DNA from: Candidatus Saccharimonadota bacterium
Lineage (GTDB): Bacteria > Patescibacteriota > Saccharimonadia > Saccharimonadales > OFTM59
Direction of reading: 5' to 3'
Assembly: GCA_029260875.1 (NCBI GenBank)
Contig: JAJDCL010000028.1
Coordinates: forward strand, 1,161 to 65,160
DNA length: 64,000 nucleotides
The position numbers and the translations under genes were made by a program. Below are positions 14,611 to 19,151 of this stretch, in pieces (position 1 is the first letter of the stretch; every line of letters starts with the position of its first letter). The notes beneath the pieces are model-generated. The model did no database searches. It was given only the letters and a program-made list of their open reading frames with translations, and was not told where the DNA came from.

Positions 14611-14799
14611 GGCCCCGTCGTCTAGTGGTCCAAGATATCTGCATCTTTACCCCACAAAACAGGTTTTGCGGGGACCCCGTATCATCCAGAAGATCGCGGG
14701 TTCGGTGTACGAAGAACGGAGTGATAAGATAAGCTTGCTTAATCTTAGCGCGAGTACCGCAGGAAAGAGCGTAGCGATATCCCGCAGATTTAACAATAA
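14611..14799 (+). ncRNA. tRNA-derived structured module (Glu/Asp-like 5' half and split T-arm, no acceptor 3' strand); pseudo-tRNA or novel tRNA-like RNA
   Basis: GGCCCCG-TC-GTCT-AGTGGTCCA-AGAT-A-TCTGC-ATCTTTA occupies 14611-14649. A 24-nt hairpin follows at 14650-14673, then CCAGA-AGATC-GCGGG-TTCG at 14686-14704. A structured insert of about 75 nt follows, then CCCGC at 14781-14785. No CGGGGCC acceptor partner precedes tRNA-Glu. Confidence 0.3.
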
Positions 14800-14874
14800 G
14801 GTCCCATCGTCTAGCGGTTAGGACACCAGGTTCTCATCCTGGCAACAGGGGTTCGATTCCCCTTGGGATCACCA
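14800..14874 (+). tRNA. tRNA-Glu(CUC), CCA encoded
   Basis: Sequence is GGTCCCATCGTCTAGCGGTTAGGACACCAGGTTCTCATCCTGGCAACAGGGGTTCGATTCCCCTTGGGATCACCA. The anticodon stem is CCAGG/CCTGG, the loop is TT-CTC-AT and the T-loop is GGTTCGATTCC. Confidence 0.9.
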
Positions 14875-16375
14875 CAAGAGACTCATCTACATCAGATGGG
14901 TCTTTTTTGTTTGCTATAACAGATAACAGCGGGCTTAATTTTGCGGTTCCAAAACCGTTTTCAAAGTCATATACGATTCCATCTGGAAAAAGTAACTTTT
15001 GAATATCTTGTCGTATCTTGGTATTTGCACGGTTCCAGAATATGTCAGGTGTGGTTATGAAACTCATTGCATCATCTACGATCTGTTCTTTTTCCTTTAC
15101 GTACTGGTCGGCCTCAATTTGCTCATCCTCTAGATCATTAATCTTTTCTGCAATATTGGCGATCTGAGCCTGCTTATCCTCCTCAGTGATCTTATCCAAG
15201 ATAAACTTTTCTGTGGTAGCTTTTCTAAGTTGGCGGTAATAGTCGATCTCCTTGCTTATGCGTGCGGCGTTCTCAACAGCTTGGCCATACTCATCGTTCC
15301 ACGCTCTGAGCACGATTACCTTGTATAGCTTGGTGATACCACTGAGGGGTCTTAGGTTCTCGAGGTACTCCCTGAATAATTTATGCGTTATATCAGCATC
15401 TGCGCTGGCTTTTCTGCCAGTTACTTTCTTTTTGCAGGTAGGCTGATTGCAATGGTACATGGGGTAGTAGCTACCACTCCTGCCTCTAGACGAGCTGGCT
15501 GTAAGTGCCTTGCTGCAATTTGAGCACAGTAAGGTGCCTCTCAATGGGAACATGTCATCGCCACGAAGTACGTAGGTCTTTTTTGAGCCCTGTATCAAGT
15601 CAATGTTCTTGTAGATTACTTCCTCATCAACCAACGCCTTGTGCATGCCTCTATGGACTTTAGGGGATAGCTTATTCTTGGTATAACCCGCATAGATTAG
15701 ATTCTGGAGTATCTTTTTCAATGCATCAGTTGATTTTGGCTTACCACTCTTGGTCTGTATGCCTTGCGTAAACGCATAGCGTGCAATCTGTGCAAGTGAA
15801 AAAGTACCAGTTGAGAACTTAACGAGAACATCAGTAATCTTTGATGCGTAGACAGGATCGGCAACAACACGTGCGTTCTTTTTAGTGTAGCCAATAGGTG
15901 CCGAGTGTGGCCAGCCACCTTGCTCGACCCTTACACGCATGCCGCTCACTGTACGTATCGCACGGATCTCATTATCGAACTGTGCCGCAGCTGCAAGGAT
16001 TGCCTCAAGAAATCTGCCGACAGGATCATCATCAATAGGCTCAGTAACAGATACAATCCTCACACCATACTTAGCAAGTGCAACCTTAATACCATAGTAA
16101 TCACCTAGGTTGCGTGCCAGTCGATCAATTTTCCAGATGTATAGAATCTCAACCTGATTCTTTTTATCTTTGACGTATTGGAGTAGGTTCTGTAACTCTG
16201 GTCGATCTATGAACTTGGCCGATTCGCCTCGCTCTCTGAATATGTTTTGTTCTGGAACTAGAGTTTTCTGATCTTGTGCAAACTTTTTACACTCTTTCTC
16301 TTGAGAATCTAGGCTGGTTTTGCCATCAACTTGTTCCTTTGTGGAGACACGTGTATAGATAATTCCAACGCTCAT
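14834..16375 (-). CDS. Large serine recombinase (integrase)
   Basis: 513 aa. The N-terminal resolvase domain has IIYTRVSTKEQ (catalytic Ser) and IDRLARN. The recombinase domain has GGWPHSAPIGY. A Cys-rich zinc ribbon (LLCSNCSKAL...YHCNQPTCKKK) and a coiled-coil tail follow. The 3' end is antisense to the terminator and tRNA-Glu. Confidence 0.9.
   Translation of the reverse strand: MSVGIIYTRVSTKEQVDGKTSLDSQEKECKKFAQDQKTLVPEQNIFRERGESAKFIDRPELQNLLQYVKDKKNQVEILYIWKIDRLARNLGDYYGIKVALAKYGVRIVSVTEPIDDDPVGRFLEAILAAAAQFDNEIRAIRTVSGMRVRVEQGGWPHSAPIGYTKKNARVVADPVYASKITDVLVKFSTGTFSLAQIARYAFTQGIQTKSGKPKSTDALKKILQNLIYAGYTKNKLSPKVHRGMHKALVDEEVIYKNIDLIQGSKKTYVLRGDDMFPLRGTLLCSNCSKALTASSSRGRSGSYYPMYHCNQPTCKKKVTGRKASADADITHKLFREYLENLRPLSGITKLYKVIVLRAWNDEYGQAVENAARISKEIDYYRQLRKATTEKFILDKITEEDKQAQIANIAEKINDLEDEQIEADQYVKEKEQIVDDAMSFITTPDIFWNRANTKIRQDIQKLLFPDGIVYDFENGFGTAKLSPLLSVIANKKDPSDVDESLVVIPRGIEPLLPG
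14881..14908 (+). terminator. Intrinsic terminator of the tRNA-Glu unit; also part of the left att-like repeat
   Basis: ACTCATCT-ACATC-AGATGGGT forms 8 bp including one G.U, followed by CTTTTTT. Confidence 0.7.
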
Positions 16376-16413
16376 GGAACCAGTATATAACGAAACTGTA
16401 ACTGTTATGAAAA

Positions 16414-16572
16414 CTAATTTAGATGTTTTGGAACCGAACTACGTATTGTTTCTCTCGCAACGGATTCCAGTAACACAATCAGGCGTTCTATCTCATCATC
16501 AGAAAACTGCTTGAACTCTGTACCAAGCAGTTTTCTCGCCTCTTTAATTGTGATGATGGGATCTGGTTGCAT
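16414..16572 (-). CDS. Small ORF (52 aa) upstream of and co-oriented with the recombinase; possible directionality or DNA-binding factor
   Basis: Own translation gives MQPDPIITIKEARKLLGTEFKQFSDDEIERLIVLLESVARETIRSSVPKHLN. It is below the track's size cut-off and ends 38 nt before the recombinase start. Confidence 0.35.
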   Translation of the reverse strand: MQPDPIITIKEARKLLGTEFKQFSDDEIERLIVLLESVARETIRSSVPKHLN

Positions 16573-16743
16573 TTGTGGCTCTCGTGCGAGCCAAGAAAAA
16601 AACAGCCCGCAACTTTAATAGTTGTCTTGGCTGTTTGCCTATGCAGGAAATTATACAGCTCACAGCAAAATCCGTAAATGTTACCACGGTGTTAACAACA
16701 TAGCCTATAGGTGTTTCTACCCCCGATGTAATAGAATAAAAAG

Positions 16744-16864
16744 GTCTAAACCAACAATTGAGGCGCACCAACAGTGCGTGATTAAGCCTTGTAATGGGCA
16801 TCACGCAGGCAGTAGGGCTTAATAACTCTATTGTTGGTTTAGACACCAGCGTGGTGTCCTTTTT
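16744..16864 (+). ncRNA. Candidate sRNA of about 120 nt: closed three-way junction plus intrinsic terminator
   Basis: P1 pairs 16744-16758 with 16830-16844 (15 perfect bp). P2 is 16763-16779. P3 pairs 16781-16788 with 16816-16823. The terminator GACACCA-GCG-TGGTGTC-CTTTTT lies at 16842-16864. A TAGAAT -10 lies at 16732-16737. Confidence 0.4.
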
Positions 16865-16881
16865 AATTTGAGGAGAAAATA

Positions 16882-16986
16882 ATGGGTTTCATTAGAAACG
16901 ATTGGCATGAGCAAGGTATTGTTACCAAGATACTACTTGTTCTTGGTCTGATCATCGCAGCCATTGTTTGGCTTGCTAAAAACTGA
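16882..16986 (+). CDS. 34-aa single-TM micro-protein
   Basis: AGGAG at 16871-16875 lies 6 nt before the ATG. The product is MGFIRNDWHEQGIVTKILLVLGLIIAAIVWLAKN. Below the track's size cut-off. Confidence 0.4.
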   Translation: MGFIRNDWHEQGIVTKILLVLGLIIAAIVWLAKN

Positions 16987-17087
16987 TTGTTTTTCAGTTT
17001 TTTCAGTTACAAAAGCGGGTCTGAAAAACAATTGTTTTTCGTTTTTCCGTTTTAGAAAATCAGCTTAAAAAGTTGATTGTTTTTCAA
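16985..17087. repeat. Iteron/operator array: ATTGTTTTTC three times at exact 45-bp spacing, the middle copy within a perfect 18-bp palindrome
   Basis: ATTGTTTTTC occurs at 16986-16995, 17031-17040 and 17076-17085. GAAAAACAATTGTTTTTC occupies 17023-17040. Confidence 0.6.
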
Positions 17088-17148
17088 TTAATCAATTTTC
17101 CCACCAACTCCTTTGAATAAGATAGGCATCAGGGGTACTATATTAGTA

Positions 17149-18846
17149 ATGAAAGCAACTAAGGTAACAGTCCATAACTACCGATCGATACACGATGCCA
17201 CCTTTGATCTGGCTGACTATGCTCTGCTCATCGGATCCAACAATGCTGGCAAGAGTACATTTGCTAACGCCATCAGGGTTTTTTATGAAAAAGACGGTTT
17301 CAAGTACGATTCAAAGAAAGATTACCCATTTGATCTAGTAAAAGATGCCGAGCGTGAATCTTGGGTGGAAATATGGTTTGAGCTCGATCAAGATGAGTAC
17401 GATAACCTCGCAGAGAAGTACAAGCAAGTTGATAAGGTGTTGAAAGTTCGCAGGTATCTAGAAACCGCAACTTACAAGAACCACGAGGGCAAGGCTGGAT
17501 CTGGTCAGATTTTTGGCTACAAGACTGACGGCACCTTAGATAACGAGGCGTTTTATGGCGCAAAGAACGTTCAAAGTGGAAAGTTCGGAGAGCTGATTTT
17601 TATACCTGCCATCAGTAAGGTAGATGATCACACAAAGTTTAGCGGTGCATCTGCGTTGAGAGACCTTGTAACTGATATCCTCTCTGGTACCACTGACTTT
17701 GATGCCAACTACGGCGCATTAGAGGAAAACTTTACGACTTTCTCTAGTGCTATGCAATCCTCCAGTACCGCCGATGGCCGTTCCCTAAAGGCTGTTGAGG
17801 ACTCGCTGACTGGCATGCTAGAGGATTGGGGTATTGGGTTCAAGTTGACTTGGAAAACTCCCTCGATAGCTGAGATCATCAAGTCCATGATTAACTCCAC
17901 CTACACCGACCTAGCGCACGACAAAGAGATATTGATAACAGATGCTGGCTCTGGTTTTCAGCGACACCTTATCTACAGTGTTATCAAGACGGGTGCAGAT
18001 TTTGCTGCAAAAAAACCTAAAGCTAAAAAGACTAGCTTTGAACCAGAGCTTAGATGGATCGTATTCGAGGAACCAGAGGCTTTTCTCCATCCTCCGCAGC
18101 AAAACGAGCTTTCACGTAGCTTGCAGAAACTATCCGAGCTAGATAGTACACAGGTGTTATGCACCACTCACTCGCCGAACTTTGTAAACAAGAATATGCA
18201 GGCCATCACCAGCGTTGCTCGTGTGCAGAAAAACAAGAAAGGCTATGCTGATTTCTATCAGATTAGCGACACGACTTGGCAAGATATCACCGACAATAAC
18301 CAACTTATTAGCGCACTGCCATCAGCACCAGCGGCGCACCCTGATGATCTAGATCCTGAAATGGAGGCCATCAAGTACGCAATTTATCTGAATCCAGATC
18401 GTGCATGCATGTTCTTTGCTAAGAGAGTGCTGATTGTTGAGGGCGCAACAGAGGTTGCGTTAATAAACCACTTGATTGATATCGGTGAAATAAAGGCGAG
18501 CCTATCTGGCCTGCATGTAATTGATGCAATTGGCAAGTTCAACATCCATAGGTTTATGAAACTCCTTGAGTGTTTGGGCATTGAGCACTCCGTCTTGCAT
18601 GATGCTGATGCACCAGCAAAGACCTTACAGCAAGAGATTAATCAGCTTATCCAAGATTCCTCCAATACTTTTACGTACAAGATTGAAACGCTTGACCCTG
18701 ATCTAGAAACTTACCTAGGCCTGCCTGCGGTTGGTTCACGCCACGATCGTAAGCCACAGAGTGCGATCTATAACTACAACAACAGCAACTACGACACAGC
18801 AAAGATGGCCAGTTTCAAAACTCTGATTGAGAGCCTTGTTTCCTAG
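17149..18846 (+). CDS. OLD-family nuclease (ABC-type ATPase + C-terminal TOPRIM), stand-alone
   Basis: Motifs are Walker A GSNNAGKST, Walker B IVFEEPEAFLHP, H-loop TTHSP, and TOPRIM LIVEGATE ... HDADA. I prefer the ATG at 17149 over the track's TTG at 17113, which is in the same frame. Confidence 0.85.
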   Translation: MKATKVTVHNYRSIHDATFDLADYALLIGSNNAGKSTFANAIRVFYEKDGFKYDSKKDYPFDLVKDAERESWVEIWFELDQDEYDNLAEKYKQVDKVLKVRRYLETATYKNHEGKAGSGQIFGYKTDGTLDNEAFYGAKNVQSGKFGELIFIPAISKVDDHTKFSGASALRDLVTDILSGTTDFDANYGALEENFTTFSSAMQSSSTADGRSLKAVEDSLTGMLEDWGIGFKLTWKTPSIAEIIKSMINSTYTDLAHDKEILITDAGSGFQRHLIYSVIKTGADFAAKKPKAKKTSFEPELRWIVFEEPEAFLHPPQQNELSRSLQKLSELDSTQVLCTTHSPNFVNKNMQAITSVARVQKNKKGYADFYQISDTTWQDITDNNQLISALPSAPAAHPDDLDPEMEAIKYAIYLNPDRACMFFAKRVLIVEGATEVALINHLIDIGEIKASLSGLHVIDAIGKFNIHRFMKLLECLGIEHSVLHDADAPAKTLQQEINQLIQDSSNTFTYKIETLDPDLETYLGLPAVGSRHDRKPQSAIYNYNNSNYDTAKMASFKTLIESLVS

Positions 18847-19151
18847 CTAGCAGCTAGGTTTCCATCACTATTACTCAAACAGATACAGGAGTGAGTTGCC
18901 GCACAGCGTTAACTATCTGCCACATAGCTATTAGTTCTCGCTTGATTTGTTTCCAGTTCGCACCTATCAAGCTCACCATTTAGAAGCTCATCTACTAGAT
19001 GGGCTTTTTACATGGCTCATGCTCAACAAAACTGGCGGTTTACCGTATACTGAAGCATAAGCGCGTTTTTACACGCGATATTTCCATATGGCGGGCAATT
19101 TATGTACACACAAAAGACCAAAATTAGTACGACATCGGATGGGCTGCGTTA

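Follow-up and report, generated by a model that had tools for sequence, protein, structure and literature searches.

A 4.1-kb Saccharibacteria element integrated at the 3' end of a tRNA-Glu gene carries a large serine recombinase whose C-terminus differs between its circular and integrated forms

We analyzed a 64-kb stretch of a Saccharibacteria chromosome (TM7, of the candidate phyla radiation, CPR), hereafter the window, in which the block at 14875-18978 (4,104 bp) is, with a probability of roughly 90%, the integrated form of a small circular mobile element. The block lies between a tRNA-Glu(CUC) gene and a gene for a PAS histidine kinase (HK), with umuD-umuC on its left and the HK and a response regulator (RR) on its right. 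It encodes a large serine recombinase (LSR), a 52-aa protein (orf52), a 34-aa peptide and an OLD-family nuclease. A preliminary description of this DNA had proposed a minimal integrative element, a proposal now supported by empty sites in relatives, by a copy at another tRNA-Glu and by related free circles. Coordinates without a label refer to the window, L-numbers denote contigs or loci of relatives, and P-numbers denote LSR homologue proteins.

The right boundary was set by comparison with related elements. Over its final 120 nt (18860-18978), the block shares 76-78% identity with the far ends of L083, L084 and L091, and the window and these three loci diverge directly after ...AAGCTCACCA. 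Homology with four related elements ends right after TCACCA, the L135 alignment running one base further, to a shared T (18979), which places the right junction (attR core) at TCACCA 18973-18978, with host DNA beyond. The matching attL core, TCACCA at 14869-14874, consists of the last acceptor-stem bases, discriminator and CCA of the tRNA-Glu(CUC) gene at 14800-14874 (+), which ARAGORN and the Rfam tRNA model (62 bits) both recovered intact, as first described. The 3' half of this tRNA forms the B arm of attB and remains intact after insertion; the same tRNA stands at the empty sites of L059 and L024. Joining 18978 to 14875 gave a reconstructed attP with the junction ...GATGAGTCTCTTGTGGTGAGCTTGATAGG... 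(longer form GATGAGTCTCTTGTGGTGAGCTTGATAGGTGCG), while the reconstructed attB reads ...CTTGGGATCACCATTTAGAAGCTC... (longer form CCTTGGGATCACCATTTAGAAGCTCATC). TCACCA is the only stretch identical between the two, so the crossover maps inside these 6 bp, where the crossover dinucleotide would also lie. These alignments show the 6-bp TCACCA alone to be the junction repeat, which fits a serine recombinase. Elements at tRNA-Met genes share CTACCA in the same way, and L098 has a perfect 25-nt repeat beginning with these 6 nt.

Direct repeats of about 40 nt had been proposed to bracket the block. Their similarity is real: a Smith-Waterman alignment of the left 40-mer (14869-14908) with 18973-19009 scores 36, the best non-self match of the 40-mer on both strands of the 64 kb (next best 22; mean over tiles 11.5, standard deviation 2.3), and 0/20,000 shuffles reached that score, so that the flanks align far above chance. 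Blastn-short missed this gapped repeat and gave a false far end of L083 at 2936, corrected to 3729 by P-arm homology. As a junction repeat, only the 6 bp stood. The remainder of the similarity is between two terminators, the native tRNA-Glu terminator on the right resembling a replacement terminator of the element on the left. On the left, the element P' arm (14875-14908, +) provides an intrinsic terminator for the tRNA (stem 14876-14906 plus a T-run, by terminator scan), and its minus strand codes for the LSR linker KKDPSDVDESL. On the right, the host B' arm (18979-19009, +) is the original tRNA-Glu trailer and terminator hairpin, now 4.1 kb from the tRNA. The P' hairpin is kept in L135 by compensatory changes (TCATCT/AGATGG to TTTCC/GGAAA) despite lying in coding sequence. 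Since the native tRNA-Glu terminators of many relatives have a common GCTCA...TGGGC form, the element hairpin may descend from or mimic the native trailer. The expected displaced partial copy of the tRNA is present insofar as the tRNA 3' terminus recurs, over 6 bp only, the right hairpin being host DNA. The pentamer GTTCG (18956-18960), read initially as a decayed T-arm, is not tRNA debris; it is element DNA whose minus strand codes part of the native LSR C-terminal tail, and the homologous position reads CATTCCG in the free circle L127, so the pentamer is not conserved there.

Comparison of the locus with relatives provided evidence of insertion. The host was identified as a member of the Saccharibacteria from its UmuC relatives. 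The gene order umuDC, gap, HK, RR, p219 and p448 is kept in about 40 Saccharibacteria genomes, and empty tRNA-Glu sites were found in L016, L018, L024 and L059, where the umuC-HK gap measures 215-280 nt and contains just tRNA-Glu(CUC) and its terminator. The relatives with empty sites are more distant ones (HK identity 54-57%). Removing the 4,104 bp in silico left 174 nt from the tRNA to HK, with the right hairpin and the HK-upstream box that follows the B' arm (GGTTTACCGTATACTGAAGC, common to L003 and the empty site of L059) placed as in the L059 empty site. Close relatives are without the same genes at this place. The closest, L003 (UmuC 77%, HK 85% identity), carries a different element at the orthologous attB, with an LSR 30% identical to that of the window, a D12 methyltransferase as cargo and a 475-aa ORF, so the tRNA-Glu site has been occupied independently by different elements. 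The L003 element ends at TTCACCA (17790-17796) and is followed by a terminator that resembles the B' arm terminator of the window (17797-17835, score 28). Conservation of the element apart from its surroundings was seen in L135 (from ERR1883821), where a 91%-identical copy (window 14800-18979) lies at a tRNA-Glu(UUC) with unrelated flanks. An element carrying a whole tRNA-Glu was rejected as an explanation, since the same tRNA type is present at the L059 empty site and homology with other elements ends at the core. Look-ups of the exact proteins returned no match for the LSR and HK, and for UmuC and the OLD protein only the short Logan contigs L001 and L002, window-identical contigs from sister samples (SRR15505512 and SRR15505513).

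The composition of the block is foreign in its k-mers. Its tetranucleotide profile is the most atypical of any 4.1-kb segment of the window (L1 distance 0.312 vs 0.156 +/- 0.021, maximum 0.22). The AT-richness seen by eye in the preliminary description was borne out in direction but is marginal, GC content being 43.4% vs 45.9% in the remainder of the window, with 13% of equal-sized windows equally low or lower. A GC fraction of 0.403, lower than that of the element, occurs in at least one further 4.1-kb stretch of the window.

Tyrosine integrases are the usual makers of islands at tRNA genes, which carry a displaced tRNA fragment (Islander definition, PMC4383910), and the block could in principle be a classical island of this type, with the repeats as a duplicated tRNA 3' segment. 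The tests reported here contradict this explanation, which we find hardly credible: the element has no tyrosine integrase or Phage_integrase domain, the shared tRNA-derived sequence is just 6 bp (18973-18978) rather than tens of nucleotides, and homology within the LSR family defines the junction. In L003, the tRNA-Glu 3' end does recur further downstream as a perfect 22-nt copy (17959-17980), which would suit such an island, but this copy lies outside the LSR element, beyond the native terminator (region 17834-17981). It was considered and rejected as the attR of L003, since the true attR (TTCACCA 17790-17796) has next to it a P arm that codes for a homologous tail. Some 125 nt of GC-rich sequence with many hairpins precede the 22-nt copy, which resembles a scar left by an earlier and different integration event.

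The 513-aa LSR reported initially (14834-16375, -) was confirmed, its last 41 nt overlapping the tRNA gene. Profile searches detected Resolvase (PF00239, 1e-29), Recombinase (PF07508, 8.7e-07) and Zn-ribbon (PF13408, 19.9 bits) domains, and the protein matches the PHROG integrase family phrog_95 (1.7e-71). Residues Y7, R9, S11, D84, R85 and R88 are invariant in 30-51 homologues, and C284, C287, C309 and C314 are invariant or nearly so in the alignment. The protein thus combines a serine resolvase-type catalytic domain with a recombinase domain and a zinc ribbon with an embedded coiled coil, and its att sites share a short core. Every locus of the family with enough flank shows a convergent tRNA overlapping the LSR 3' end: tRNA-Glu(CUC) for the 47-75% clade nearest the window LSR and tRNA-Met(CAU) for another clade, with LSRs at about 32% identity adjoining tRNA-Ala, tRNA-Leu or tRNA-Glu(UUC).

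The C-terminus of the integrated form of this recombinase is supplied by the target. The last 11 LSR codons (IPRGIEPLLPG and stop) are antisense to the tRNA 3' half, with TCA of the anticodon loop lying opposite the stop codon. All 30 homologues aligned (48-76% identity) end in ...LV..G(I/L)EP.T.GL, the antisense of a tRNA T-arm and acceptor stem, and at least 90 of the 120 closest homologues end in tRNA-antisense tails. Four of the 120 (532-534 aa) end natively, with ...LV(S/G)..(E/S).W.QIK.EL..MWQIVNE.R..(S/T)PV.V. Upon joining 18978 to 14875, the ORF continues in frame as ...ESLVV-SLIGANWKQIKRELIAMWQIVNAVRQLTPVSV to a stop codon, yielding a reconstructed free form of 534 aa, and the free circle L127 (LSR 76% identical) runs collinear with the joined DNA without interruption. 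Integration thus swaps the last 32 LSR codons for 11 tRNA-antisense codons and leaves the detached native 3' end (VSLIGANWKQIKRELIAMWQIVNAVRQLTPVSV and stop) as the element P arm at 18875-18978 (-), which rejoins the LSR ORF in the circle. P0010 and P0085 have a second conserved non-tRNA tail (...GL(G/R)WNTL(H/Y)ES.VELD.KLE.LGL...), which suggests a sub-clade with a different native C-terminus.

The detached tail is conserved. Searches by tblastn with native tails found detached tails at the far ends of at least 11 integrated elements, among them the distant type represented by L003. At 99 nt, the tail ORF is equally long in the window, L135, L083, L084, L091 and L127, with a pN/pS of 0.10-0.31, and differs between the window and L135 by 3 synonymous and 0 non-synonymous changes, the protein being identical. 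These values indicate purifying selection on the detached tail, and selection on a gene segment so far removed (4 kb) from the main part implies regular passage of the elements through a circular form. AlphaFold2, run on the 534-aa free form with 51 sequences, predicted the catalytic domain, the recombinase domain and the zinc ribbon with its coiled coil (helices at 345-439, set between the zinc-ribbon strands) at high confidence, followed by a disordered segment (476-507) and a C-terminal helix (508-529). The crossover maps to the disordered segment, so the tethered terminal helix is all that integration takes away; the swap leaves the catalytic and DNA-binding domains unaffected, and all domains remain in the 513-aa integrated form. 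Weaker matches to the tail peptide also occur outside current elements (L084 4289-4360, L088 5942-6010, L089 1331-1381, L037 13501-13560 and L060 11085-11144); they are probable remnants of earlier insertions, or tandem scars.

Free circles of the family were recovered from metagenomes. Five contigs assembled independently of one another encode the 533-aa LSR P0012 (two ENA k141 contigs, a scaffold and two Logan contigs, from ERZ27309394, ERZ27309396, ERZ28656156, SRR6747781 and SRR14234031). They are 100% identical circular permutations with terminal overlaps of 141, 141, 55, 30 and 30 nt, each a 4,499-bp circle. L127 is a 4,124-bp circle, and L133 a 6,325-bp circle with a HEPN_AbiU2 gene and an IS30-like transposase. 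Element sizes estimated from detached tails range from 4.1 to 8.4 kb. Searches of Pfam and PHROGs detected no Rep-like, capsid or packaging gene on the circles, and Pfam, PHROGs and PDB gave no function for the circle cargo ORFs. No close relative of the LSR was found in IMG/VR (2.9 million contigs), in 50,697 INPHARED phage records or in PLSDB plasmids, where the best identity was 28%.

These circles also bear on the idea of a small plasmid or episome whose principal state is a replicating circle of 4-6 kb and which integrates only occasionally, with palindromic repeats upstream of the OLD gene as its origin and the chromosomal copy as a side state. Identical 4,499-bp circles were assembled apart from chromosomes in five samples, the native-tail form occurs in several lineages, and the window element has three phased palindromic repeats, all of which such a plasmid would explain. 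Replication and spread of the family as circles may occur; as a description of its principal state, however, we regard the plasmid as unlikely, though the strongest competitor, given that integrated forms make up at least 90 of the 120 LSR homologues nearest to that of the window, that no circle carries a Rep-like gene, that the palindromic repeats are missing from the circles and from all other family members except L135, and that PLSDB holds no relative above 28% identity. A remnant of a prophage or phage satellite using a serine integrase is very improbable. The match of the LSR to phrog_95 and of the cargo to the PADLOC 'Old' model would be compatible with a viral past, but neither the window element nor the circles contain structural, packaging or lysis genes, complete circles measure just 4.1-6.3 kb, and IMG/VR and the phage records hold no close family member.

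A second gene is tightly associated with the recombinase. The 52-aa ORF of the preliminary description, orf52 (16414-16572, -), lies directly upstream of the LSR, as do its homologues in about 25 family loci found by tblastn, including those of LSRs just 30% identical, and P0079 is a natural in-frame fusion that joins it to the N-terminus of the LSR. A promoter-like site, TTTACG-17-TATAAT (16650-16678, -), stands upstream of orf52 and the LSR; it is a consensus match only (10/12), in a region nearly identical in L135. No match to orf52 was found in Pfam, PHROGs or PDB. From its strict co-occurrence with the LSR and the fusion in P0079 we infer that orf52 is a candidate recombinase partner, possibly a directionality factor or regulator. 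Artificial fusions of integrases to recombination directionality factors are functional (PMC5737554).

Several observations weigh against integration of a mobile circle as the explanation of the block. No read-level excision evidence was obtained for this copy, and contigs L001 and L002 break near the tRNA, which makes them uninformative on the empty site. GC content alone fails to set the block apart, and the similarity of the P' and B' hairpins is not significant in L135 (alignment score 16, not above background). The Zn-ribbon match of the LSR lies below the curated cut-off of 25.3 bits, the tail helix was predicted at low pLDDT (predicted local distance difference test score, about 40-59), and orf52 has no homology to known directionality factors. 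The circles have no recognizable replication gene that would account for their persistence. This copy could be a fixed, immobile relic, with the LSR and OLD genes domesticated and the flank similarity due to just two terminators; besides the missing excision evidence for this copy, the truncation of the LSR upon integration, as in 'suicidal' SSV-type integrases (PMC7253208), points that way. We nonetheless judge a relic improbable: the reading frames of the LSR, of orf52 and of the detached tail are all unbroken, purifying selection acts on the tail, whose protein sequence is the same in L135, a 91%-identical copy occupies another tRNA gene, and the swap spares the catalytic and DNA-binding domains.

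The boundaries of the element, the mobility of its family, the circular forms, the continuous ORF at attP and the selection on the detached tail are established by these data, and on this basis we propose the following mechanism for an integrated circular element. The LSR would recombine an attP located in the 3'-terminal part of its own coding sequence with an attB that has the final 6 nt of the tRNA (TCACCA) at its centre. Because serine recombinases require just a very short identical core, the tRNA stays intact, and the 6-bp core is the sole sequence duplicated on insertion. The tRNA loses its own trailer and terminator (now 18979-19009) and gains the element hairpin (14876-14906). At the same time, the LSR gene is cut 32 codons before its natural stop, so that the integrated 513-aa form ends in 11 tRNA-antisense residues, and the native tail, a predicted helix on a flexible linker, is stranded at the far end (18875-18978, -) and rejoined on excision only. 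The 534-aa LSR made from the circle would integrate at the tRNA 3' terminus, whereas the 513-aa form may differ in regulation, direction or stability until excision.

One tentative extension, which we hold at rather less than even odds, is that this exchange constitutes a directionality switch encoded in DNA topology, the circle making a 534-aa LSR with a tethered helix and the integrated copy a 513-aa LSR without it. The helix might act in cis on the coiled-coil/zinc-ribbon module, or serve as a stability tag. The free form would favour attP x attB recombination and the integrated form would be locked; alternatively, the integrated form might be primed for orf52-dependent excision. Serine integrases are prized for genome engineering, and control of their directionality is an active question; a natural family in which the C-terminus is exchanged by recombination itself offers a new, testable route to direction control. 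If the extension is true, such a switch would operate in mini-circles that ferry defence genes between Saccharibacteria, possible native vectors for these hard-to-engineer bacteria.

The element is of a known kind, a serine-recombinase integrative element, but is unusual in targeting a tRNA 3' terminus, in placing attP within the recombinase ORF and in existing as 4-6 kb circles in CPR bacteria. As in the phage serine integrases phiC31, Bxb1, A118, TP901-1 and SPbeta (PMC3783163, PMC5499577), the LSR unites resolvase, recombinase and coiled-coil-bearing zinc-ribbon modules, its attP and attB share a very short core in place of long direct repeats, and a small directionality factor is to be expected. 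Unlike them, the window family targets the 3' terminus of tRNA genes (Glu or Met), its attP inside the recombinase ORF changes the C-terminus on integration, and it resides on 4-8 kb non-viral circles in CPR bacteria, with at most 28% identity to annotated phage or plasmid LSRs. The SSV-type 'suicidal' integrases of archaeal viruses and plasmids likewise have attP in the integrase gene and a tRNA target, the gene being split by integration and made whole again on excision (PMC7253208, PMC8371274). Those enzymes are, however, archaeal tyrosine recombinases that are left as two inactive halves, whereas the window LSR exchanges only its last 32 codons; as a serine recombinase that keeps all its domains when integrated, it is an analogue and not a member of that group. 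In the integration-dependent immunity of mycobacteriophage BPs and its relatives, the repressor of BPs loses 33 residues, and hence a degradation tag (PMC4557955). There, too, attP lies inside a gene whose integration product has a different, shorter C-terminus, but the gene encodes a repressor and the integrase is a tyrosine recombinase, while in the window the gene is the recombinase itself and its tail has no shown tag function. Like tRNA-gene islands, the element bears cargo, abuts the 3' end of an intact tRNA gene and uses a site that is reused; it differs from them in having no tyrosine integrase, in a tRNA fragment of 6 bp and in restoring a terminator rather than part of the tRNA. Serine recombinases, besides tyrosine integrases, can thus specialize on tRNA gene ends, with a 6-bp core and a supplied terminator. 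In the literature searched, whose coverage is incomplete and gives no proof of novelty, we found no earlier description of serine-recombinase elements at tRNA genes in Saccharibacteria or CPR bacteria, and mobile elements of Saccharibacteria appear little described. A 4-kb self-integrating circle with a defined tRNA attB would be an obvious basis for genetic tools in these bacteria.

The cargo gene (17149-18846, +) encodes the 565-aa ATPase and TOPRIM nuclease noticed at the outset, for which profile searches returned AAA_15 (7e-32, also AAA_21) and OLD-like_TOPRIM (2e-17). In PADLOC, 'Old' was the best model (3.3e-60, vs 2e-32 for AriA and 2e-28 for GajA). The top-scoring PDB entry, 6P74, carries the annotation of a putative OLD-family ATP-dependent endonuclease; we take it to be the class 1 OLD enzyme of Thermus scotoductus; the founding Old protein is encoded by phage P2. 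Sequence inspection and the 6P74 alignment show intact motifs GSNNAGKST, IVFEEPE, LIVEG and HDADA, corresponding to Walker A, Walker B, the TOPRIM E and DxD, respectively. The neighbours of the gene are the 34-aa ORF and attR, with no adjacent UvrD/PcrA-type helicase, retron or AriB partner. These features identify the predicted product as a class-1-like stand-alone OLD-family nuclease. It most likely acts in anti-phage or anti-plasmid defence. It resembles the class 1 enzymes P2 Old and 6P74 in having an N-terminal ABC-type ATPase, a C-terminal TOPRIM domain with its acidic residues and no partner helicase gene, and departs from them in its location, on a 4.1-kb LSR element in a CPR bacterium behind a module of leader, micro-ORF and repeats.

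OLD homologues 65-67% identical to the window protein are encoded away from LSR elements. One of them is flanked by an EcoRI-type methylase/GmrSD pair and a DUF2130 gene and another adjoins a tRNA-Trp, which marks the OLD gene as exchangeable, defence-island-type cargo; a defence role thereby gains support from gene context alone. These homologues share an upstream motif, AAGTGACATGTGCGGTGGTGGCACTTA (L136 2560-2620, L137 5930-5990), which is absent upstream of the window OLD gene, where palindromic repeats stand instead. Cargo varies across the family and often consists of defence genes: L098 carries a C5 methylase with an NgoBV endonuclease and a superfamily 1 (SF1) helicase, L091 a KAP NTPase, and L083 methyltransferase, deacetylase, zeta-toxin-like and PIN genes. 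Defence genes (OLD, restriction-modification, KAP NTPase, HEPN/AbiU2) thus have in this family a concrete vehicle by which to move horizontally in Saccharibacteria. L096 (2917-6565) holds a facing pair of different LSR elements, each of which overlaps a tRNA-Met gene of its own; these tRNA-Met genes converge and are separated by about 750 nt.

Between orf52 and the OLD gene lies a module whose parts had also been sketched in the preliminary description. The sRNA-like element proved to be a structured RNA leader (16741-16868, +; minimum free energy -61.2 kcal/mol, z = -6.6), consisting of a long hairpin (GTCTAAACCA...TGGTTTAGAC) and an intrinsic terminator directly upstream of a ribosome-binding site. 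It belongs to no Rfam family, Rfam finding nothing in the element except the tRNA, but covariance model R1 detected it in seven further LSR-family loci (L135, L003, L100, L097, L105, L106 and L092), of which L105 and L106 look like copies of one locus. The leader is 100% identical over about 170 nt in L135, and compensatory pairs can be picked out by eye in the alignment of both stems. In the window and in five inspected loci (L003 14469-14604, L100 7618-7739, L097 7255-7402, L105 7038-7182 and L092 6468-6603 on the minus strand), about 20 nt separate it from a downstream gene that encodes a small membrane protein (34-169 aa). Its outer stem shares GAC, on the 3' strand, with the terminator stem, a switch-like resemblance. 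A 100-aa ORF overlying the RNA motif (16544-16846, -) was rejected as spurious, since a 1-nt indel disrupts it in L135.

The micro-ORF next to the leader (16882-16986, +; also called as a gene here on L002) encodes a 34-aa peptide with a single transmembrane helix, MGFIRNDWHEQGIVTKILLVLGLIIAAIVWLAKN. All of its differences from L135 (7/7) are synonymous and in third positions, which bears out the ORF. A type I toxin-antitoxin module, made up of a small hydrophobic peptide, a structured 5' UTR and an antisense RNA antitoxin, is one possible reading; the peptide has one transmembrane helix and its leader is structured, and no antisense RNA was identified. The iteron array described next to it comprises three palindromic 22-nt repeats (16978-17089; core GAAAAACAATTGTTTTTC; repeat family D1, inverted repeats I2, I5 and I14) at an exact 45-nt spacing, conserved in L135; nothing tested shows these to be replication iterons. 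The leader, 34-aa ORF and repeats, a combination not seen with the 65-67% OLD homologues, may form a toxin or regulatory module, an operator array for OLD, or an origin.

The surroundings of the tRNA-Glu gene vary among relatives. Between umuC and HK, the gene is on the plus strand in the window, L003, L016, L018, L024 and L059 and on the minus strand in L006, L007, L012, L021, L027, L084, L085, L091 and others, and extra DNA sits 3' of the tRNA where examined (for example in L012, L027, L064, L084, L085 and L091). The varying orientation suggests recombinase-driven inversions at a hotspot, of a kind reported for archaeal integrases (PMC5495485). Just 3' of the tRNA-Glu terminator, nine relatives (L012, L021, L027, L029, L032, L041, L045, L057 and L058) have a sequence of the form TGGT-hairpin-GAACC...AAGCTTGCTT-like, and a related sequence lies upstream of the tRNA in the window (14704-14795). 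In relatives, neither Rfam nor tRNA calling recognized it, and it may represent an RNA that lacks annotation or the debris of former att sites. A decayed second tRNA-Glu occurs just upstream of the intact one, at 14612-14703, with the same sequence in L001. Its 5' half and its anticodon and T-arm segments match the 'type 2' tRNA-Glu(CUC) of relatives such as L016 and L058, with an insertion of about 40 nt at the anticodon loop, and it ends after the T-loop GGGTTCG.

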